Assembly (NCBI GenBank): GCA_964631155.1 | Contig: CAZVYO010000011.1 | Span: 7,591 to 71,590 of the forward strand | Reading direction: 5' to 3' | Source: an uncultured Flavobacteriaceae bacterium | GTDB lineage: Bacteria > Bacteroidota > Bacteroidia > Flavobacteriales > Flavobacteriaceae | DNA: 64,000 nucleotides | In this document: piece after piece, positions 41,685 to 56,476 of the stretch | How positions within the stretch are numbered: position 1 is the stretch's first letter | Layout: each line of letters begins with the position of its first letter | Program-made: the position numbers and the translations under genes | The notes under the pieces: generated by a model | The model's input: only the letters and a program-made list of their open reading frames with translations | Database searches by the model: none | What the model was told of the DNA's origin: nothing

Positions 41685-43417
41685 AGAAGAACTTCAATCC
41701 TAAAGACTGGTTGCAACAATCCAAGGTTGTAACGCAAGCTAAAGCAACCCAAAAAACAATCGCCACGGCTGCTATCGATAACAATGATATGGAGACATAT
41801 ATCGCCGCCATTGAGCAATCTGGTACAGATATAACTGGCGATTACGCACGTTGGCGTGATATTGGTTTCGCTTTCGCGGAAGCTTACAATGAACAAGGCA
41901 GGGATTATTACCATAGGATAAGTCGCAACTATCCCGGTTATGACCAAAAGGAATGTGACGAGCAATACACTAAATGCCTAAATGCCAAAGGTCACGGTAT
42001 TACGGTGGCAACATTCTATCATTATGCACATCAAGCAGGGATAAAACCGCAACGGCCACAACCAGAGGTTGCAACCTTGCCAGTTGTAGAAGCAACCAAA
42101 GAGCAACTTCCTACGTTTCCTGATAATCTTTACGACACGATACCTGATTTTCTCAAACTGGTCATTATGCCAGCAAATGGTAATGAGGAAAGAGATATAA
42201 TGTTATTGGGAGCGCTAACTGCTTTTAGTGCCTGTTTCCCTAATCTCTTTGGCATTTATGATGAGCGTAGAATGTATAGCAATTTATACCTATTCGTTAC
42301 TGCACCTGCAAGCGCAGGAAAAGGAAAGCTCAACCAAATCAAAAAGTTGGTCGCACCTATTCACAAACTACACCGTGAACAAGCCAAAACACTTAAACAG
42401 CAATACGAGAGTGAACTTGCCACTTACAATATGAACAAGGGCAAGAATGAAAACCTTGAAAAGCCTGGTAAACCGCCAGAACGTATGCTGTTTATTCCTG
42501 CCAACAATAGTACAACTGGAGTGTATCAATTGGTTGCAGATAATGAAGGACGCGGATTGATGTTTGAAACCGAAGGCGATACGCTCGCACAAGCCTTTAA
42601 AAGTGATTACGGTAATTATAGCGATGGGTTCCGCAAAGCATTCCATCACGAGACCATAAGCTATTACCGCAGGACAGACCGTGAATATGTAGATATTGAA
42701 ATGCCTTGTTTGAGCACCGTACTTTCTGGCACGCCTAAACAAATTTCAACCCTTGTTCCCAATGCAGAAAACGGCTTGTTCAGCCGTTTCATATTCTACT
42801 ATATGAACATCAAACCAGTTTGGAAAGATGTGTTTGCCAAACGTGCTAAAGTTGGTTTAGAAGAACATTATGAGCAACTCGGTAAAGATTTTTTAGGACT
42901 ATACAGAACGCTCAAAAATAATCCACCTATTGAAGTGACGCTTTCGCGAAAGCAACAACAGCAATTCAATGAGTTCTTTGCAGCCTTGCAAACCAAATAC
43001 ATCAACCTACAACCTGAAGAATACATTGCGACGGTTAGACGCTTAGGCTTAATTGCATTTCGCTTCGCGATGCTCTTTACAGCCTTACGCATTATGGAAG
43101 ATGGCGATGTCAACGCTACCAAGCAATGTGAGGACGTAGATTTTGACAATGCGCTGGCAATGATTCAGGTATTGGTAAAACACAGCAGTAAGGTGTTCAA
43201 CGATTTACCTATGGAGCCAAAGGCTCAAAAACGGCTTAATAAAAAGGAACGATTTTTAGAAAAGCTACCTGACAAATTCGACCGACAGCAATATCTAAAA
43301 ACCGCTGATGAACTTGCTATCCCACATAAGACTGCTGAAGGTTATGTTACTGGTTTTGTCAAGTCTGGTTTGATTCACAGGGACAAGCATAATGAGTATA
43401 TAAAGCCCAGTCAGTAG
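41681..43417 (+). CDS. PriCT-2 + DUF3987 domain protein (replication/primase-associated P-loop)
   Basis: YARWRDIGFAFA...YYHRIS...Y...ECDEQY (PriCT-2-like); APASAGKG; ETEGDTL; LSGTPKQ; ENGLFSRF. Confidence 0.75.
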   Translation: MKKNFNPKDWLQQSKVVTQAKATQKTIATAAIDNNDMETYIAAIEQSGTDITGDYARWRDIGFAFAEAYNEQGRDYYHRISRNYPGYDQKECDEQYTKCLNAKGHGITVATFYHYAHQAGIKPQRPQPEVATLPVVEATKEQLPTFPDNLYDTIPDFLKLVIMPANGNEERDIMLLGALTAFSACFPNLFGIYDERRMYSNLYLFVTAPASAGKGKLNQIKKLVAPIHKLHREQAKTLKQQYESELATYNMNKGKNENLEKPGKPPERMLFIPANNSTTGVYQLVADNEGRGLMFETEGDTLAQAFKSDYGNYSDGFRKAFHHETISYYRRTDREYVDIEMPCLSTVLSGTPKQISTLVPNAENGLFSRFIFYYMNIKPVWKDVFAKRAKVGLEEHYEQLGKDFLGLYRTLKNNPPIEVTLSRKQQQQFNEFFAALQTKYINLQPEEYIATVRRLGLIAFRFAMLFTALRIMEDGDVNATKQCEDVDFDNALAMIQVLVKHSSKVFNDLPMEPKAQKRLNKKERFLEKLPDKFDRQQYLKTADELAIPHKTAEGYVTGFVKSGLIHRDKHNEYIKPSQ

Positions 43418-43422
43418 CTAAG

Positions 43423-45060
43423 TTACTTTCTGGGTTTCCTTTCCTTCAACTTAGTCTTAGGATGTTTAATTGCCCGATGAAAATTAAGCTCAAAGCGTCG
43501 TGTTTGTTTCCTAATGGTACTTCGCCCGCCGTTTAAGGGTTTCATTACCTCATTCGCTTTCATCAAGTAACTAAAGTAATTACCCCAATCATAACGTTTT
43601 TCAGGATCCTTTTTAAACTTGTTCAGATTATCAGGATCAGGTATTCGTTTTAGACGTCGTTTTCCACCTAAAAAGGTAAAACGCTTTATAAGTCTATTTT
43701 TAAACAAGCCCTTTTCACGGTGATGCGCCTTGCTTGCATAATACTTACCGCGTTTGATACTTCGTATCATACTGCGGTAATATTTTGATATACCTTGAGT
43801 CTTTACATAAACCTGGGAACCGGTATATTCAAAACCCAGGTATTCCAACTGATTATTTTTAGAATAACCATCAGTGCCTTCGGCGATACCACCTTCAAGG
43901 CCGTTACCTTGACGGTGATACCTATAAACTTGTGTTTTCTCAGGATGTATTACCAGCTTGCACTTAGTAGGATGAGCAATCTCAGCTCTAAGAAACTTAA
44001 TTGTTTCCGTTTCTTTATCTCGAGGGCATACGATAATGAGATCATCACTATAGCGCTGATAAAATCCATCATAAGCCTTCGTATATTCATACAAGGCTTC
44101 ATCAAAATCGAGCATATAAATATTGGCCAGTACGGCACTCATTGGACTGCCTTGCGGTATGCCCTTTGGTGAAAAACTACTCTTGTAAGTTCCATCGCTA
44201 CGCTCACCACGACGTTTGGACTTTACGAGATGTAGATGGTTTCTAAAAAAGTCTTTTTTGGTGCAAAAAGCAATAACCCTTTCTCGTCTAAAATTACGTC
44301 GCTTAGCGACTCGTTTTTGTTTCCACTCTATTTCATCGGGACGATTAGGCTTGTTACGCTCTACCCAGATGCTATCATAGCAAGCATTATGCAACTCATT
44401 AAGCTTTACGTACCGCTTTTTAGTCAATGATCTATACACATTATAATGATCATCAGGCATACGTAGCTGTCCTTGCTCATCGCGACAATTTAAAACGCGT
44501 TTCCATTGCCTATGTAATATTTTGTGATCCAGCTCATCAAAAAAGCTCGATACATCAGCAACAATGACACTCACTTCATTTTCATCTATTCGATTTAAGG
44601 CTTGAAAGGCATCAAACGCAAACTCAATATTTGATTTGTTCCCCTTCTGTCCTTTGTCTTTCCTTATCTTACGATAGGCAACCGCACAATGGTTAAAGGG
44701 CTTATGCCTCAAATACCACTCATAATGAACGCTCAATACATAGCTGTAGTAACTATAGATCAAGGAATCAAAATGACTGGCGTAGTATAAGGGACGGTCT
44801 TTAGGTGGCTTTTTTTCTACCCTAACCCTTTTACCGTACTCATTTTTCTCATACTTAAGTGAACCATCTTCCTGTGGCTTTTTCTCAGCAGCGCGATACT
44901 TGCGTTGTATGATAGAACGCTTAATAAGAGGTGTGAAACGGTGCTTGACGATTTTCTTTGGATTGGTCACATAAGGTACAACCCAACTCTTATCCTTTGG
45001 TTGGAGAGGTAGCCCGATATGAGCATATCGTTTAAGTTTAAACCATCTTTTAACTGCCAT
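43423..45060 (-). CDS. Defence-associated reverse transcriptase, DRT2 (UG2)-like
   Basis: RT motifs DVSSFFDELDH, GIPQGSPMSAVLANIYM, YQRYSDD, LEYLGF. The N-terminal WFK.K.Y.H, YV..P.KI.KH.F.P, RP..YASH.DS.IY and KSNIEFA blocks match my recollection of Klebsiella DRT2. No maturase X/En domain or intron flanks. Confidence 0.8.
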   Translation of the reverse strand: MAVKRWFKLKRYAHIGLPLQPKDKSWVVPYVTNPKKIVKHRFTPLIKRSIIQRKYRAAEKKPQEDGSLKYEKNEYGKRVRVEKKPPKDRPLYYASHFDSLIYSYYSYVLSVHYEWYLRHKPFNHCAVAYRKIRKDKGQKGNKSNIEFAFDAFQALNRIDENEVSVIVADVSSFFDELDHKILHRQWKRVLNCRDEQGQLRMPDDHYNVYRSLTKKRYVKLNELHNACYDSIWVERNKPNRPDEIEWKQKRVAKRRNFRRERVIAFCTKKDFFRNHLHLVKSKRRGERSDGTYKSSFSPKGIPQGSPMSAVLANIYMLDFDEALYEYTKAYDGFYQRYSDDLIIVCPRDKETETIKFLRAEIAHPTKCKLVIHPEKTQVYRYHRQGNGLEGGIAEGTDGYSKNNQLEYLGFEYTGSQVYVKTQGISKYYRSMIRSIKRGKYYASKAHHREKGLFKNRLIKRFTFLGGKRRLKRIPDPDNLNKFKKDPEKRYDWGNYFSYLMKANEVMKPLNGGRSTIRKQTRRFELNFHRAIKHPKTKLKERKPRK

Positions 45061-45075
45061 TCATAAATTAAAAAA

Positions 45076-45422
45076 AGAGCCGGCCGAGACTAAAATTGTC
45101 GCTTTTCATTTAAGTAAGGCAGTACATCGGCTTGCTGTTTTCGTTAGATAACTACTTACAGCGTCCCTCTATATTTAGAATACTTATTGCTATAGGTATA
45201 TTAGATATACTAATAAATAAAGCATCAACAGATATGACACATTTACTCATCAACAGCATTGTAAAGACCTTAATGGAATACCTCATATCTTCTTTAACGG
45301 GAAGATATGGCAGGTTCCACTTTGGAATGTACAATCAAACCACGGACCGCCCGTGGCTGGATGTAGACCTGTACTTCTACAGACCTACCAGAAATAAACG
45401 TACTTACCAGCTAACCGGCTCT
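45076..45422 (-). ncRNA. Putative DRT-associated ncRNA (~347 nt)
   Basis: Ends pair (AGAGCCGG 45076-83 / CCGGCTCT 45415-22). Hairpins at 45083-131, 45134-162, 45284-309, 45315-327, 45340-356 and 45362-381 surround an AT-rich, hairpin-poor 121-nt core (45163-283). A U7 tract follows the terminal stem, then the RT ATG. Confidence 0.75.
45165..45284 (+). other. Candidate cDNA repeat unit encoding a 40-aa Neo-like peptide
   Basis: Only one + frame is open across the core: PSIFRILIAIGILDILINKASTDMTHLLINSIVKTLMEYL (120 nt, in-frame ATGs at 45234 and 45273). Exact junction is inferred. Confidence 0.5.
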
Positions 45423-45425
45423 CAG

Positions 45426-45433
45426 CAAAGCTA
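45426..45433 (-). promoter_or_regulatory. -7 promoter element for the ncRNA-RT transcript
   Basis: TAGCTTTG on the - strand is a perfect TAnnTTTG, a few nt upstream of the predicted ncRNA 5' end. No clear -33 box. Confidence 0.6.
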
Positions 45434-45616
45434 CTCGATTTAAAATCAAATCGTTTTAGTTTTATTAACATTCTCACAGCTTATCATTTCCCTTACTTCC
45501 CCAATTCCTGATGTCATCGCATCGAGGTAACTTGTTTTCTGTTAATATCTTTTTCTTAGCCCTTTCTTGCTTTTGATTATTTTAGACAAAAATTGACAAG
45601 TCTAAATATCCCTAAT

Positions 45617-50466: not shown

Positions 50467-52545
50467 ATGAAATTAGACCATTTATATTCATTAAGACGAA
50501 GCTTTACAGTTATTGGACTCACAGGAAGAACAGGTTCAGGATGTACAACAATGGCAACATTGTTATCAGGTTCTTATTCAACTCTTCAAAAAAAAGGTCT
50601 TCGAAATTTTACCAAAGAGAAAAACAAAGATGATCTTTTCTTAAGAAAATACCACATTGTCAAACAATTTGTGTCTACAGGTGATAATTGGATACCATTT
50701 GATGTAATCAGTTACAAAAACGTAATCTTACTTTATCTATTTAATAAGTATGGTGGTAATTATTATAAATTTCGTCGTTTGTTGAATGATTTTTATAGGG
50801 AATCTAAAAAAGAAAATAACACAGCTATCGCTAAAAGAGTTTCTGAAAAAATCATTGAAATTCACGTAAAGTACTCAGGCCTAATCGACAAAATAAAATC
50901 TTTAGAAAATATTGGATCTATTAAGAATCCAGACGATTTACTACTTCTAAATGAGATTTTTTTCGGGAAGCCATTCAAAAAGTTCAGTAAAGAAATATTC
51001 TCTGCTTTACAGTCCGAAGGCTATTATCGAAGAACCAATTTTTTACATCATATCGCTTGTAATATCAGGCAATCTGGGGATCCTCGTGTACCAACTGGAA
51101 AAACAGTTGAGAATATATACCAGATTGCTAATACCATCAATCGCATCATAAAGGCGAGAAAGCTGGCAAACGCCTCAAAGCCTACTAAGATTGTGATTGA
51201 TTCTTTAAGAAACTCTTTGGAAATTATGTTTTTTAGGGAACGTTATTCAGCATTTTATATGCTTGCCACAAAGGACGTAATGGAAAACTCAAAAGAGCGT
51301 ATCTTGATGAGACTGCCCAAAAATATTAAGGATGAATCAAAACGCAATGAGTTAGCAGATAGACTACTTGAATTGGACGAAACCGAGTACAAAACAAAAG
51401 ACTTCTCAAAAGGAATTTTTTCATCGCCTGACGTTGAAAATTGCATTCAAAAAAGCGATTATCATATTCTTAATTTAAAAAAAGAAGCAGTTGACGAATT
51501 TGTCAAAAAGTATGATCCACCATATCTCAAATTAAATTTTCTAACACGGGAAGAACAGCTACTTAAATTGGTTGCTTTAATCTCACAACCGGGATTAATA
51601 ACACCAAGTTCAGTTGAGCGATCTATGCAGGTTGCAAACTCGGCTAAACTAAATTCAGGTTGTATCTCAAGAAACGTAGGAGCCGCAATTACAGACGGAT
51701 CATTTCACGTTAAATCCATAGGTTGGAATGATGTAGCTAAAGGACATACACCTTGCAATCTTCGAGAAGTCCAAGACTTGATAAGTCCATCCTCAAAAAA
51801 ATGGCTTGATGAAACAAAACATTATAGTCCCTTCGAAAAAGGAAATGTATCCCAGAAATCGTCCTTTAAGTATAAGAACGAGAAGCCAGGCAATTTCAAG
51901 GAAGCCTTAACTGATTATTTTAGTGAACCATTAAATGAAAAGAAAGAAGATTTAAATGGTAAAAATTGTGCTTTTTGTTTTAAAACTGTTCATAATCATT
52001 ATGAAGGTGAAGCCAATCAAGTGCATACAAGATCTCTTCACGCAGAAGAAAATGCAATGCTTCAAATAACAAAACTCGGTGGACAAGGTGTAAATGGTGG
52101 TATCTTATTTACAACGGCCAGTCCCTGTGAATTATGCTCAAAAAAGGCATATCAATTAGGTATTGAGACAATATACTTTATAGATCCATATCCAGGAATT
52201 TCGAATGATCAAATACTAAAAGGAGGCCAAGAACGCACACAACCTAAAATGATTCCATTTTCTGGGGCAATCGGTATAGCCTATCACAAGTGCTACGATT
52301 CGTTTATGTCATATAAAGATGAAATTTCTATGACCCTTGAAATCAAAACCGATAATAAAGTTGGTATTCAGTTTAAGGAACTTCTTAAAACTTTGAAAGG
52401 AAAGGATCAAAGAATTGCAGATCTACTATCAAAGCAAGAGAAGTTCTCAGATGAAGATGTAATCAAACTTTTGACTGATGCTTTAAAGTCTAAGGAAGAA
52501 ATTATCTCAGATACTACCAATAATTTGAAACAACAGAATAAGTAA
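50467..52545 (+). CDS. Anti-phage dCTP deaminase (AvcD/Dcd-like: P-loop kinase-like + deaminase)
   Basis: IGLTGRTGSGCTT, IDSLRN..E, S.C.SR.VGA.I, GWNDV, LHAEENA, ASPCELC. Confidence 0.85.
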   Translation: MKLDHLYSLRRSFTVIGLTGRTGSGCTTMATLLSGSYSTLQKKGLRNFTKEKNKDDLFLRKYHIVKQFVSTGDNWIPFDVISYKNVILLYLFNKYGGNYYKFRRLLNDFYRESKKENNTAIAKRVSEKIIEIHVKYSGLIDKIKSLENIGSIKNPDDLLLLNEIFFGKPFKKFSKEIFSALQSEGYYRRTNFLHHIACNIRQSGDPRVPTGKTVENIYQIANTINRIIKARKLANASKPTKIVIDSLRNSLEIMFFRERYSAFYMLATKDVMENSKERILMRLPKNIKDESKRNELADRLLELDETEYKTKDFSKGIFSSPDVENCIQKSDYHILNLKKEAVDEFVKKYDPPYLKLNFLTREEQLLKLVALISQPGLITPSSVERSMQVANSAKLNSGCISRNVGAAITDGSFHVKSIGWNDVAKGHTPCNLREVQDLISPSSKKWLDETKHYSPFEKGNVSQKSSFKYKNEKPGNFKEALTDYFSEPLNEKKEDLNGKNCAFCFKTVHNHYEGEANQVHTRSLHAEENAMLQITKLGGQGVNGGILFTTASPCELCSKKAYQLGIETIYFIDPYPGISNDQILKGGQERTQPKMIPFSGAIGIAYHKCYDSFMSYKDEISMTLEIKTDNKVGIQFKELLKTLKGKDQRIADLLSKQEKFSDEDVIKLLTDALKSKEEIISDTTNNLKQQNK

Positions 52546-52616
52546 AAAAACTGAATAGAACATAGCAATTTATGAAGCACGTTTAAATCAACGTGATTAA
52601 AATCCTAATGTAGCTT

Positions 52617-54737
52617 ATGCAGGAACACCTCAAATCAAACGTACTTAACTTTCATTGGCCTAAAACCCTACCCACCTTTTTTCTAACATTAGAAGAGATT
52701 GAGGGAAGTTTTCCTGTACATAAATCTAAATTTTCTAAGCAAATAAAGGAATGTTTTAATGATGAGGATATTACCTCAAAGGATGAAATATACACAACCT
52801 ACGATAAACCATTACAGGATGCGCCATCTATAAAACTCAACCTAACCAACAGAAAGGAGCTACGTATATATAAGCAGTTCCTCAAGCACCAATTAAGAGA
52901 GCATTTTAGAAACAAAGGCTATATCGTTGGGAAAAACTTCGTAAGAGACGTTCAGGTGTGGTTGCCATCGTCAAATGAGAATACAGAGCATTACAATCTC
53001 TACTACAAGTTTTCATTTAAAATTCAGTTTCAAAAGATTTCAGAACTGCCAGAATTGGTGATTTCTTATGACGGCACGTCAAAAGTATTGACTTCCTCAG
53101 TTAAGGATATTGAAAACACAGAGCACATCGGGCGTTGCGTTTACGGCCAATCCACCTTCAACTACCAAATGCCGCTGGACACAGAGGAAAAGAGGGATTT
53201 CTATGATAGTATAGAATTTGATCAGGCGTTCCCGCTATTCAGGTTAGAATTAGCTCAAGAGTTGGGTATTCCTATAGACCCACCTCAAAAGCCCGACAAT
53301 AAATACAAGAAATACGTCGCATTGATAAACAGCTTTGCAACTAAGTATCTCTTTACAGATGAGTTCCAGTCTATTTTCGCTTTCGCGAAAGCGGAATTTA
53401 TCGACGTTCCGTTACATAGCATTCAGCATATCGACCCTAATAAAGGCTTGCTGGAATTTGGAAAGGACCAATACAATAATCGCAAAACGCATTTAGTACC
53501 TAAAATTGCGATGAACTCGCTTAACCCATACAGGCGACCGCCTATCCAAAACATTAAATTCTTCTTTGTTTACCATACCTCACACAAATCAGGTATAACC
53601 AGTTTTTATAACAATTTGAAATATGGTGTAAATGGATTAGATGCTAAGAAAACATATTTCAAGGGAATTGAAGACTACGTAAATATAAAGGCAGCTACCT
53701 CTAAAGGTCATTTTATTGAGTTCACAAATGAGAATGATCCAATACCAGAAATACAGGATCAGCTGGAAAACCTGAATTTTGACCACGATAACATTCGTTT
53801 TGCAGCATTTTATATCAGTCCTTTTGATCGTTTTACACCAGATCCTGAAGATCGTGAAGTGTATGTTAGAATAAAGGAATTGTTTCTAAATGAAGGTATT
53901 GTTACTCAGGTAGTCGACTACCAAAAGATGATAGAAAATATTGAAAATCAGTACACCTTTCAATTCACATTACAGAATATGACTTTAGCCCTTCACGCTA
54001 AGTTAGGTGGTGCCCCTTGGAAATTAGCCGTGACAGACAAAAAGGAATTGGTTATAGGTGTAGGTGCGTTTACTAATCAAGGTGAAAACAGGCGGTACAT
54101 TGCAAGCGCATTTAGCTTTCAAAACAATGGATTGTTTAGAGGTTTTGAGTACTTCGATCAAAGTGAAACAAAGCTATTAGCAGGAAGCATTTGTAAAGCA
54201 ATTCGTGATTTCACATCCATCGCAAAGGCAGATAAAGTAGTAATCCATTTCTATAAAGAAATGCGACGAGAAGAACTTCAACCTATTGTGAGAGGAATGA
54301 ACGCCTTGAAGCTTAAAGTACCGCTGTACATTTTAAATATCAACAAGACCGAGTCGGAAGATATTATAGCCTATGATTTGAATTGGGGCGATAAGCTGAT
54401 GCCTGTAAGTGGTACAACCATACGTATTGATGAAAACCAATACTTGCTATTCAATAATGCCAGGTATCCAAAATCGCAATGGTATGCAGACTCAGAAGGC
54501 TATCCGTTCCCAATAAAAATCAGGATCAGCAGTCCAGATGAAGATGCTTTAGAAGATATGGATACGGTAAAACAGCTATTAACACAGGTGTATCAATTTA
54601 GTAGATTATATTGGAAATCTTTACGCCAACAAAATGTACCTATCACGATCAAGTATTCTGAAATGGTGGCCAAAATAGCACCTCGCTTTAATGCCCCTAT
54701 CCCTGCACACGCTAAAGACAAGCTATGGTTTCTGTAA
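52617..54737 (+). CDS. Prokaryotic Argonaute, long form, catalytically inactive (long-B-like)
   Basis: MID 5'-phosphate pocket Y..IK, TQ, N...ALHAKLGG.PW; PIWI ELVIGVG (G at the first catalytic D), VVIHFYK (no D), PITIKYSEM; C-terminal LWFL. Confidence 0.88.
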   Translation: MQEHLKSNVLNFHWPKTLPTFFLTLEEIEGSFPVHKSKFSKQIKECFNDEDITSKDEIYTTYDKPLQDAPSIKLNLTNRKELRIYKQFLKHQLREHFRNKGYIVGKNFVRDVQVWLPSSNENTEHYNLYYKFSFKIQFQKISELPELVISYDGTSKVLTSSVKDIENTEHIGRCVYGQSTFNYQMPLDTEEKRDFYDSIEFDQAFPLFRLELAQELGIPIDPPQKPDNKYKKYVALINSFATKYLFTDEFQSIFAFAKAEFIDVPLHSIQHIDPNKGLLEFGKDQYNNRKTHLVPKIAMNSLNPYRRPPIQNIKFFFVYHTSHKSGITSFYNNLKYGVNGLDAKKTYFKGIEDYVNIKAATSKGHFIEFTNENDPIPEIQDQLENLNFDHDNIRFAAFYISPFDRFTPDPEDREVYVRIKELFLNEGIVTQVVDYQKMIENIENQYTFQFTLQNMTLALHAKLGGAPWKLAVTDKKELVIGVGAFTNQGENRRYIASAFSFQNNGLFRGFEYFDQSETKLLAGSICKAIRDFTSIAKADKVVIHFYKEMRREELQPIVRGMNALKLKVPLYILNINKTESEDIIAYDLNWGDKLMPVSGTTIRIDENQYLLFNNARYPKSQWYADSEGYPFPIKIRISSPDEDALEDMDTVKQLLTQVYQFSRLYWKSLRQQNVPITIKYSEMVAKIAPRFNAPIPAHAKDKLWFL

Positions 54738-56467
54738 TGAAGTGGACAAAGGAACAGCAAGCCATCATTGAGGCAAAGGGAAACTTGAGAGTAAATGCTA
54801 TTGCGGGATCAGGTAAAACATCTACGTTGATTGAGTATGCAGCAAACCAACCACCCAATAAGCGTATTTTATATCTTGCATTCAATAGCTCGGTACAATC
54901 AGAGGCTTACCATAAATTCAAAGCGAGAGGACTAAGAAATGTATTTTCAAAAACCGCGCATTCCCTTGCAAAGCGAGAAATAGTAGATCGTGGTAACTAT
55001 CAACTACAAGGTGACGGTTATAAAGCCCATCAAATTGCCGAAATACTGAATCTAAAAGGAAAGGCGCAGGACTACTACGTTTATATTTTGGCAACACACG
55101 TTAGAAATTTCATTGCCTACTTCTGCAACAGCACAGCATCAGACTTTGATGAGTTAGATTATTTGGAGTCTATCAATGAGCCCGCAGCATTAAAATTTGC
55201 CTTGTCCAACGAAAAATATATCGATCGTTATACTAAAAGATTTTATCAGTTGATGGATGAAGCTAAAATTCCTGTAACTCACGATTATTATCTTAAAAAA
55301 TTTCAATTAAGTAACCCTACTTTAAATCTTGACTATATCCTATTTGATGAAGGTCAAGATGCATCACCGGCTATGTTGGATGTTTTCCTAAAGCAAGATT
55401 GTACCAAAGTTATTGTAGGCGATACACATCAGCAGATTTATTCGTGGCGTTATGCGATAAACTCTTTGGAGCAAGTTGATTTTCCAACACTTCACCTGTC
55501 CAATAGTTTTAGATTCAATATGGAAATCGCCACATTGTCAAAGCACGTTCTTAGTTATAAAAAAGCATTGGACATATCAGATGAGTGTAAGATTGTAGGA
55601 AAGGGAACAAATAAATCGACCAATCTTAAAGCCATAATTGCACGTACTAATATCCAGCTATTGTCCGAAGCATTCTATTATCTAATAGAGGCTAAGGTGG
55701 TAAATAAGATATATTTTGAAGGTGGCTTCAACTCATACACTTTTGCGGGTTCTGGAGCATCATTATGGGATGTTTACAATCTCTTTCAAGGAAACCATAA
55801 GTACATAAGAGATAAGATGATTAAAAGTATGCAATCCATCGGAGAGCTACAATCTTACATCAAGCAAACAGGTGATTTAGAACTTCATCTTATCGTTGAA
55901 ATAATACTTCAATACAAAACGCAGTTTCCTGACATATTGAAAAAAATAGGCAACCATTGTGTGCATCAAAATGAAAGAGAAAACGCCGAACTAATCTTCA
56001 CGACAGCACATAGAAGTAAAGGGATGGAGTACGATGTGGTCAAGGTGTGCAATGATTTTATAGATTGGGAAGAGGTTCAAAAAGAACTAAATGGCCCACA
56101 AGCCGCATCCTTAGACAAGAAGGGGTTGAACGAAGAAATTAATTTATTGTATGTAAGTGCTACAAGAACCAAAAATAGGCTCTACATACCATCGCAACAT
56201 ATTCCAAAAAATGATTTTGGTTACAAAACTATTCGCCCTCAGTATAGGTTTGATAAAGATGTTTTCGGTATTGATCGTAATATGTCCACAGTTACAGTAA
56301 CGTATATACAAGAACCTGACTATTCTAATCAATGGACATCAGAAGATGAAGCTAAAGTAAGAACAATGCACAAGGACGGCTTTTCAATCTTAGAGATTGC
56401 CGCTGAACTCGAGCGTTCCAAGAAAGCGGTAGCCTTACGAATGCATAAATTGAACATAGAACCTTAA
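54737..56467 (+). CDS. UvrD/Rep-like SF1 helicase with C-terminal HTH
   Basis: AIAGSGKT, FDEGQD, VGDTHQQIYSWR, SFRF, ARTN, TAHRSKGMEYD, LLYVSATR; tail WTSEDE...GFSILEIAAELERS. ATG overlaps the pAgo stop (TAATG). Confidence 0.88.
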   Translation: MKWTKEQQAIIEAKGNLRVNAIAGSGKTSTLIEYAANQPPNKRILYLAFNSSVQSEAYHKFKARGLRNVFSKTAHSLAKREIVDRGNYQLQGDGYKAHQIAEILNLKGKAQDYYVYILATHVRNFIAYFCNSTASDFDELDYLESINEPAALKFALSNEKYIDRYTKRFYQLMDEAKIPVTHDYYLKKFQLSNPTLNLDYILFDEGQDASPAMLDVFLKQDCTKVIVGDTHQQIYSWRYAINSLEQVDFPTLHLSNSFRFNMEIATLSKHVLSYKKALDISDECKIVGKGTNKSTNLKAIIARTNIQLLSEAFYYLIEAKVVNKIYFEGGFNSYTFAGSGASLWDVYNLFQGNHKYIRDKMIKSMQSIGELQSYIKQTGDLELHLIVEIILQYKTQFPDILKKIGNHCVHQNERENAELIFTTAHRSKGMEYDVVKVCNDFIDWEEVQKELNGPQAASLDKKGLNEEINLLYVSATRTKNRLYIPSQHIPKNDFGYKTIRPQYRFDKDVFGIDRNMSTVTVTYIQEPDYSNQWTSEDEAKVRTMHKDGFSILEIAAELERSKKAVALRMHKLNIEP

Positions 56468-56476
56468 CCAATTGAA

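Follow-up and report, generated by a model that had tools for sequence, protein, structure and literature searches.

A 64,000-nucleotide (nt) stretch of contig CAZVYO010000011.1 from an uncultured Flavobacteriaceae bacterium, called the window below, carries a gene for a reverse transcriptase (RT) that is preceded on the same strand by a structured non-coding RNA (ncRNA). The question raised by this locus is what such an RT might make from its RNA, and whether the product could be a gene. To our knowledge, no system other than DRT2 is known to write a gene that the genome lacks, and the experiments to date are enterobacterial. In the original study, this gene, neo, was annotated mainly in the KpnDRT2-like clade (539 of 2,116 homologues), its annotation being harder in divergent DRT2 clades, for which other mechanisms were considered possible (PMC11100668). 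The cassette in the window can be assigned with good confidence to the DRT2 (UG2) anti-phage systems, as a member of a Bacteroidota-specific clade that most likely works by the Klebsiella neo route. The main point, missed in the first-pass annotation of this DNA, is a permuted candidate neo gene on the strand opposite to the ncRNA.

The first step concerns the family of the RT. The first-pass annotation had described a protein of 545 amino acids (aa) with a YSDD motif and long basic insertions, placed it in the DRT2 clade and proposed a comparison with other RT classes. The open reading frame (ORF), the motif and the structural alignment agree with this description, and the comparison puts Drt2/UG2 far ahead of retron, group II and UG17 models. 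The top PADLOC profile is Drt2 (429 bits, E=5.6e-129), a second Drt2 profile reaches 259 bits, and the runner-up class, UG17, scores 84 bits; models of retron, group II and CRISPR-associated RTs lie lower still, and the UG28 model is absent from the best 25 PADLOC matches. NCBIfam also ranks Drt2 first, with a match over practically the full length of the model (positions 1-415 of 416). Retrons and group II intron RTs likewise combine an RVT_1 core with a neighbouring structured RNA, yet their profiles score far below the cut-offs. Retron identity was rejected on model scores of at most 49 bits against cut-offs of at least 235 and on the lack of an Rfam retron match, and group II intron identity on a score of 76 bits for the maturase model TIGR04416, against a cut-off of 300, and on the lack of an Rfam group II match in the window.

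Among solved structures, the RT of Klebsiella pneumoniae DRT2 (PDB 9c0i, 425 aa, E=2.6e-45) is the nearest, and residues 6-468 of the window protein align to it. The window RT is about 120 aa longer, and most of the extra residues are basic. Insertions rich in lysine and arginine occupy residues ~53-90, 132-140 and 240-286, the C-terminus is also longer and basic, and the insertions are kept across 29 relatives. Pfam recognises the RVT_1 core alone, and the RT gene stands by itself, with no effector fused to it or next to it. Its listed relatives number more than 100, with lengths of 517-575 aa, and nearly all are from Bacteroidota, including Gillisia, Mesonia, Autumnicola and Xanthomarina.

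The second step concerns the part of the RNA that would be copied. It was approached through a sample of 80 loci from genomes, 80 from metagenomes and 9 contigs on which the closest proteins are encoded (individual loci are cited below by L numbers), and the RNA region upstream of the RT is conserved in every clade, at more than 150 loci. In the window, the RNA has an A-B-A' layout: the direct repeat AUUCC, a 147-nt template unit and the repeat AUUCU. Among 81 genome loci, the distance from the anchor ATTCCAA/ATACCAA to a motif of the GAGTGGCG type takes many values, and it is a multiple of 3 in every case (81/81), whereas the spacings to its left and right fall into all three classes modulo 3. 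The distance from repeat to repeat is a multiple of 3 at 72 of 76 metagenome loci and at all 17 loci of the window's own subclade. Unit lengths fall into 13 distinct values between 111 and 159 nt, each of them divisible by 3. The two repeats also tend to match each other, with ATTC/ATTC at 79 loci, ATAC/ATAC at 58 and TTTC/TTTC at one; the pattern AUACC...AUACC is typical of another large clade.

Five of 157 aligned loci (L098, L148, L152, L155 and L157) fail the test that combines the multiple of 3 with an open frame. The last four are the most distant loci, with 34-37% RT identity, and the five are probably misaligned, although they may be of a truly different design. Separately, other distant RT clades with 36-40% identity (L137-L143, L145, L147, L149, L150 and L153) have 141-144-nt units and keep the open circular frame. 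These loci differ at the aligned position of repeat 2 (e.g., ACCC, CTAA), and their jump repeats may be located elsewhere or be of a different kind. Two genomes each hold two DRT2 loci of different subclades, namely a Mesonia metagenome-assembled genome (MAG; L009 and L003) and a Weeksellaceae MAG (L007 and L027), and the paired loci within one MAG differ in unit length and repeats.

The third step is the opposite strand, which was examined because the Klebsiella neo mRNA is antisense to the ncRNA. The plus strand across the window RNA holds a stop-free stretch of 109 codons. The longest antisense ORF per locus was dropped as evidence, as 25% of mononucleotide shuffles reach at least 63 codons; since this test was unconvincing, anchor distances and circular frames were used instead. 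When the unit is circularised, the homologous antisense frame is free of stops at 81/81 genome, 72/76 metagenome and 17/17 subclade loci, compared with 2.8% of shuffles that are stop-free in that frame by chance. Nearly all of the 133 distinct units have an in-frame ATG at codon 9-17. The stretch from the unit junction to this ATG, with a median length of 13 codons, contains no stop in the neo frame of any of the 133 units, while the other two frames are stop-free in 50 and 8 units and the shuffles in 36%. This absence of stops before the ATG and the lack of a triplet constraint beyond repeat 1 both fit a frame that is read round the junction.

The composition of the frame agrees with coding. 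Codon position 2 is T in 48% of cases. The grand average of hydropathy is 0.94 for the neo frame, whereas the other frames give -0.64 and 0.0 and shuffles 0.09 +/- 0.44. Of the codon differences that involve a single base, a fraction of 0.32 is synonymous in the neo frame, compared with 0.19 and 0.23 in the other two. Gene callers annotate a frame antisense to the ncRNA as a hypothetical protein of 52-66 aa at two loci, L166:641-799 (-) and L168:529-729 (-); these small ORFs are probably mis-annotated permuted neo units with flanking RNA. This is also a warning for annotation, as a small hypothetical protein reported by a gene caller may at times be this antisense frame.

The fourth step asks how such a frame could be expressed. 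The promoter consensus of Bacteroidota, known from Bacteroides and Flavobacterium, is TTG, 17-22 nt and TAnnTTTG. A promoter that spans the unit junction and matches at least 8 of 9 consensus positions occurs in 103 of the 133 distinct units, with 58 perfect matches; in shuffles, the corresponding values are 2% and 0%. The usual family box is TAnCTTTG, and in 90 units the box starts at +8/+9 from the junction and the spacer is 20 nt long. The window junction reads TTTG-N19-TATATTAG, an 8/9 match, and a match of at least 8/9 is reached by 1.75% of shuffles of the window unit. The candidate start codon at 45234 sits 30 nt past the TATATTAG box, after an A-rich leader.

A simpler reading would be that the antisense frame is an ordinary small chromosomal gene of about 70 aa (45234-45443, plus strand) that overlaps the leader RNA of the RT and involves no reverse transcription. 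A linear ORF is indeed present at 45132-45443 on the plus strand, the -7-like box and the ATG both lie on the chromosome, and gene callers report such antisense ORFs at L166 and L168. However, the triplet rule spans the whole unit from repeat to repeat and ends at the repeats, with none beyond repeat 1, where the linear ORF continues. A linear gene would have no need of the stop-free stretch before the ATG in 133/133 units, and the best promoter forms solely across the junction. On this evidence, an ordinary chromosomal gene is very improbable.

Another reading takes the repetitive DNA itself, or a non-coding RNA, as the effector and the open frame as incidental, in the manner of the poly-dA of DRT9 or the tandem repeats of DRT10. 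Class 2 UG RTs share a repeat-template-repeat logic with differing outputs (PMC12632851). DRT10, composed of a UG17 RT, an ncRNA and a SLATT protein (PMC12632851; bioRxiv 10.64898/2026.06.29.735271), resembles the window cassette as a Class 2 UG RT with an ncRNA in cis, a template framed by anchoring stems, an A-B-A' layout and a tandem-repeat complementary DNA (cDNA), which in the window is a predicted product. Nevertheless, the window RT scores 84 bits for UG17 against 429 for Drt2, the repeats of DRT10 are short and non-coding, and no SLATT domain occurs among the neighbours of the cassette. DRT9, a UG28 system that makes poly-dA from a U-rich template (PMC12483538), shares the Class 2 UG RT and the upstream ncRNA, and the window RNA likewise has a U-run (45070-45076), conserved across the family after its closing stem, P1; the weak codon-position signal described below could also be read in favour of a non-coding product. 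Such a product would need neither 13 unit lengths that are all multiples of 3, nor strict stop avoidance in one frame, nor a conserved in-frame ATG downstream of the junction promoter, nor an enrichment of T at codon position 2. With UG28 also missing from the top 25 matches, it is improbable, if slightly less so than a chromosomal gene. The first-pass annotation had hinted at a DRT9-like use of the U-tract; this found no support, and such a role was rejected, since the conserved, triplet-phased template is a 147-nt coding unit elsewhere in the RNA and the U7 tract lies outside it.

Several results weigh against the neo interpretation or limit it. The RT misses the NCBIfam equivalog cut-off for Drt2 (313 vs. 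390 bits), for which reason its clade is regarded as a divergent one within DRT2. The co-variation of the two repeats rests on few independent events. Codon-position entropies of 0.73, 0.64 and 0.78 for positions 1, 2 and 3 are just mildly coding-like, a weakness attributed to the fact that the same sequence must fold as RNA. The sense-strand frame of the circularised unit is open in about 40% of loci (L001-L080), the window included; it is probably a by-product of antisense codon bias, and it means that open frames here are partly compositional. In the window subclade, the junction promoter is weaker and its position is not fixed, with a more degenerate box in several members and matches of just 7/9 at L001, L002 and L003, so that this part of the argument holds less firmly there than across the family. 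Finally, the -7-like box lies wholly inside the unit, and some transcription from the chromosome is possible.

The fifth step is the RNA itself. The 380-nt region upstream of the RT (45061-45440, minus strand) folds at -112.6 kcal/mol, compared with -89.6 +/- 5.3 kcal/mol for shuffles (z = -4.4), and none of 100 shuffles equals it. Covariation was assessed with helices predicted by RNAalifold in alignment A3, which contains the 17 sequences of the window's own subclade. Standard pairs fill 97.3% of the helix cells, and 23 of 37 pairs change on both sides, which none of 500 shuffles reaches. When the partner is slid by 1-3 columns, pairing falls to 30-47%. Six helices have covariation support in A3, along with one candidate pseudoknot helix. 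The candidate status of the latter follows from the pairing of AGUACG with UGUACU, which crosses the scaffold helix; 95% of its cells are paired, compared with 11-52% in slid controls, and one pair is seen as AU, GC, UA and GU. The scaffold helix covaries family-wide, occurring as GUGGC/GCCAC, GUAGC/GCUAC and GGGAC/GUCCC.

These results substantiate the account of the RNA in the first-pass annotation, namely a heavily folded region whose ends pair, a U7 tract after the 3' strand of the closing stem, and a perfect -7 box taken as a sign of its own promoter. The closing stem has nine covariation-supported pairs, and the covariation across A3 also answers the concern, raised in that annotation, that the stems might lack it. 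A perfect TAnnTTTG occupies the matching position in all 13 subclade members of A3, and the start of the ncRNA is predicted near 45421. Family-wide, a perfect -7 box is found upstream of the RNA at 23 of 148 loci, against 2 of 157 on the reverse complement of the same windows; outside the window subclade it is not general. RNA length has a family median of about 311 nt, and the window subclade is the longest of the family.

Rfam 15 gave no relevant match, either in the cassette region at E-values up to 10 or in the whole window at the gathering score. RNAalifold recovered almost no structure from a single MAFFT alignment of 81 loci or from alignments of the large clades; as variable hairpins misalign in such alignments, segment-wise and subclade alignments were used. 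A by-eye look for self-priming found no conserved complementarity between the 3' end of the RNA and the end of the template. In addition, another ATG, out of frame by one base, precedes the start codon of the RT by 4 nt (ATGAATGG, 45061-45064) and opens a mini-ORF of 4 codons. The coordinates of all features are collected in Table 1.

Table 1. Features of the DRT2 cassette in the window, in order of position.
Feature	Position	Strand	Basis or remark
DRT2/UG2-type RT, 545 aa	43423-45060	-	ORF; PADLOC Drt2; Pfam RVT_1; PDB 9c0i
Catalytic YSDD, residues 337-340	44041-44052	-	Direct sequence reading; Y337, S338, D339 and D340 invariant in 29 relatives
Structured ncRNA, ~350 nt, closing stem to U7 tract (approximate ends)	45070-45423	-	Fold, conservation, covariation
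U7 tract following P1, separated by 9 nt from the ATG of the RT (45060)	45070-45076	-	Sequence; family-wide, P1 is followed by a T-run
P1 closing stem, 3' strand GGCCGGCUCUU; U-tract directly after	45075-45085	-	Same nine covariation-supported pairs as the 5' strand
Scaffold helix, 3' strand GUCUC; abuts the P1 3' strand	45086-45090	-	A3 covariation
Pseudoknot candidate, 3' strand UGUACU; crosses the GGGAC/GUCUC helix	45121-45126	-	Pairing conservation
3'-domain hairpin closed by GCUGU/ACAGC	45134-45162	-	Five pairs, 100% kept; one AU to GC in 5 sequences
Scaffold helix, 5' strand GGGAC	45163-45167	-	Pairs with GUCUC 45086-45090
Repeat 2 (AUUCU), just 3' of the template, ACA-2 analogue, 9 nt before the scaffold helix	45177-45181	-	Conserved repeat
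Template unit of 147 nt = 49 codons, including repeat 1 and ending just before repeat 2	45182-45328	-	Multiple-of-3 distance
Candidate neo repeat unit, codons from 45183, reading LIAIGILDILINKASTDMTHLLINSIVKTLMEYLISSLTGRYGRFHFGI	45182-45328	+	Translation; circular frame stop-free
Helix within the template	45257-45253 with 45193-45189	-	RNAalifold on A3
Candidate -7 element TATATTAG, unit start, one mismatch to TAnnTTTG	45197-45204	+	Consensus match
Candidate neo start ATG, Met of the conserved DMTxLLINSI motif	45234-45236	+	Motif conserved in the subclade
Candidate -33 element TTTG, unit end, overlaps repeat 1	45321-45324	+	19 nt upstream of TATATTAG in the predicted concatemer
Repeat 1 (AUUCC)	45324-45328	-	Conserved anchor
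5' hairpin Hb (GCCACGG...CCGUGGU)	45339-45357	-	Eight pairs, five compensatory
5' hairpin Ha; long in the window subclade, short or absent in other clades	45363-45388	-	5/5 counted pairs compensatory
Pseudoknot candidate, 5' strand AGUACG, includes the family-invariant ACG	45399-45404	-	ACGTTT invariant in aligned loci
P1 closing stem, 5' strand GAGAGCCGGUU	45413-45423	-	Nine pairs, six changed on both sides, none broken in 17 sequences
Bacteroidota -7 box TAGCTTTG (TAnnTTTG) for the ncRNA, 2 nt upstream of the extended stem	45426-45433	-	Sequence

The features found by computation, i.e., the RT family, the conserved and paired RNA with its template between two repeats, the triplet rule, the endless frame with its ATG and the junction promoter, can be joined into a putative course of events. 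Here the Klebsiella system serves as the model for reverse transcription and template jumping, for the trigger by phage, for synthesis of the second strand and for toxicity. A Bacteroidota-type promoter (TAGCTTTG) would transcribe the RNA of about 350 nt, probably along with the RT gene. A stem of 9-11 bp would close this RNA, and the 5' hairpins, the 3' domain and the pseudoknot may hold the RT. The enzyme would copy the 147-nt stretch between the direct repeats AUUCC ... AUUCU, and after repeat 1 the 3' end of the cDNA (...GGAAT) could re-pair with repeat 2 and begin the next round. The predicted product is a head-to-tail concatemer of 147-bp units with the expected junction ...TTTGGAAT/ACTTATTG... 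(also written ...CACTTTGGAAT/ACTTATTGCT..., the stroke marking the junction). In the double-stranded concatemer, each junction would set TTTG 19-20 nt upstream of a TAnnTTTG-like box, thereby creating a promoter arrangement that is absent from the chromosome. The transcript would begin about 20-25 nt before the ATG and contain no in-frame stop; the frame would be endless because the unit is exactly 49 codons long. The resulting polypeptide, repetitive, strongly hydrophobic and helical, would be expected to arrest the infected cell.

What this product might be like can be judged from its units. Across the family, 48% of residues are L, I, V, F or M, and in 88% of units at least one stretch of 19 aa exceeds a Kyte-Doolittle value of 1.6, the classical membrane threshold. 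A single-sequence AlphaFold model of one unit, which is weak evidence, shows a long helix at residues 2-39 (predicted local distance difference test, pLDDT, 83) followed by a loop. The Klebsiella Neo is also biased to hydrophobic codons (PMC12039810). A tentative and rather doubtful extension is that the Bacteroidota DRT2 lineage rebuilt every neo expression signal for its host, i.e., the split TTTG/TAnnTTTG promoter, the A-rich leader without a Shine-Dalgarno sequence and the AUUC/AUAC repeats overlapping the -33 element, and that its product, with a longer, very hydrophobic unit made of one helix, could act by membrane insertion, unlike the Klebsiella Neo. If this were true, the published difficulty of finding neo in divergent DRT2 clades would be due to host-specific signals and not to a different mechanism, and the biology of the effector may differ from that in Klebsiella.

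A comparison with the Klebsiella pneumoniae system (Tang et al. 2024, PMC11100668; Wilkinson et al. 2024, PMC12039810; PDB 9c0i), whose RT is homologous, brings out both sides of this relationship. Each cassette has one RT gene, and the ncRNA immediately precedes it on the same strand. In both, short direct repeats flank a template that makes up a whole number of codons (49 here, 40 in Klebsiella), a stop-free frame runs opposite the RNA, and a promoter is split by the junction with an ATG shortly downstream. The hydrophobic, helical repeat product, predicted here, is a further likeness in properties, and the RNA scaffold 3' of the template, with its candidate pseudoknot here, is a likeness of layout. 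The first-pass annotation had regarded both RT and ncRNA as larger than in the enterobacterial model, and this holds for the protein (545 vs. 425 aa, with basic insertions and YSDD in place of YCDD) and for the RNA (about 350 nt vs. 280-281 nt; PMC11100668, PMC12039810), which here has a long-range stem closing its 5' and 3' ends. Moreover, the jump repeats are AUUC/AUAC instead of ACA, the junction promoter is TTG-N19-20-TAnnTTTG instead of the sigma-70 type TTGACA-N17-TATAAT, and the A-rich leader shows no evident Shine-Dalgarno sequence.

What is new in this DRT2 RNA is the combination of an A-B-A' template, the triplet rule, the circular antisense frame and a Bacteroidota junction promoter. 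It is a solid and testable extension of the known DRT2 logic, not a new principle, and its biochemical steps are those that we infer. In the literature, no description of the template or neo of this clade was found; a preprint that mentions DRT2, Bacteroides and a concatemer (bioRxiv 10.64898/2026.09.22.753630) may overlap. The window locus and about 150 relatives indicate that the neo design is under selection in Bacteroidota, where it would be expressed through the very different promoter and translation signals of this phylum. For the window, exact and testable predictions can be made of the 147-bp unit, the sequence at its junction, the start codon and the encoded peptide. The design also provides a simple alignment-free rule for finding hidden neo genes, namely a repeat-to-repeat distance divisible by 3 together with a circular open frame.

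The cassette is cargo of an integrative island that occupies window positions 35914-57610 and is inserted directly after mnmE/trmE. Genes for tRNA-Phe(GAA) and tRNA-Leu(TAA), at 12048-12121 and 12280-12360, are about 25 kb away, and neither is the attachment site of the island. Before the cassette, the island carries genes for HTH_17, a tyrosine integrase, DUF6617, two further HTH_17 proteins (excisionase-like), BT4734-like_N and PriCT_2/DUF3987, in this order; the last, a primase-like gene, ends at 43417 on the plus strand and is convergent with the RT. After the cassette, from 45593 on the plus strand, follow an XRE regulator, a gene fusing HSDR_N, N6_Mtase and Eco57I domains, a Methylase_S gene (specificity subunit) and RhuM. 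The earlier statement that the cassette is inverted between the replication genes and the restriction-modification (R-M) genes of the island is thus accurate, with the flanking genes on the plus strand and the RT on the minus strand.

Past the R-M genes, four genes lie at 50467-57610, including a 692-aa protein with a C-terminal cytidine-deaminase domain and a Piwi-domain (prokaryotic Argonaute) protein (52617-54737) that is overlapped by a UvrD-like helicase (54725-56467). The fourth gene of this group is a 377-aa ORF without a Pfam match, and the group may be a further defence module. The surroundings also bear on whether the cassette instead serves the replication or maintenance of the mobile island, or is an inactive relic, and so is not anti-phage at all. 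It adjoins the primase-like genes of the island, and primase-like genes are found near its relatives as well; those relatives, however, occur in many contexts, also beside R-M, UvrD and kinase genes. The catalytic residues of the RT and all RNA and neo features are intact, which makes a relic or a housekeeping function of the island highly unlikely, and the remaining cargo of the island is defence-like.

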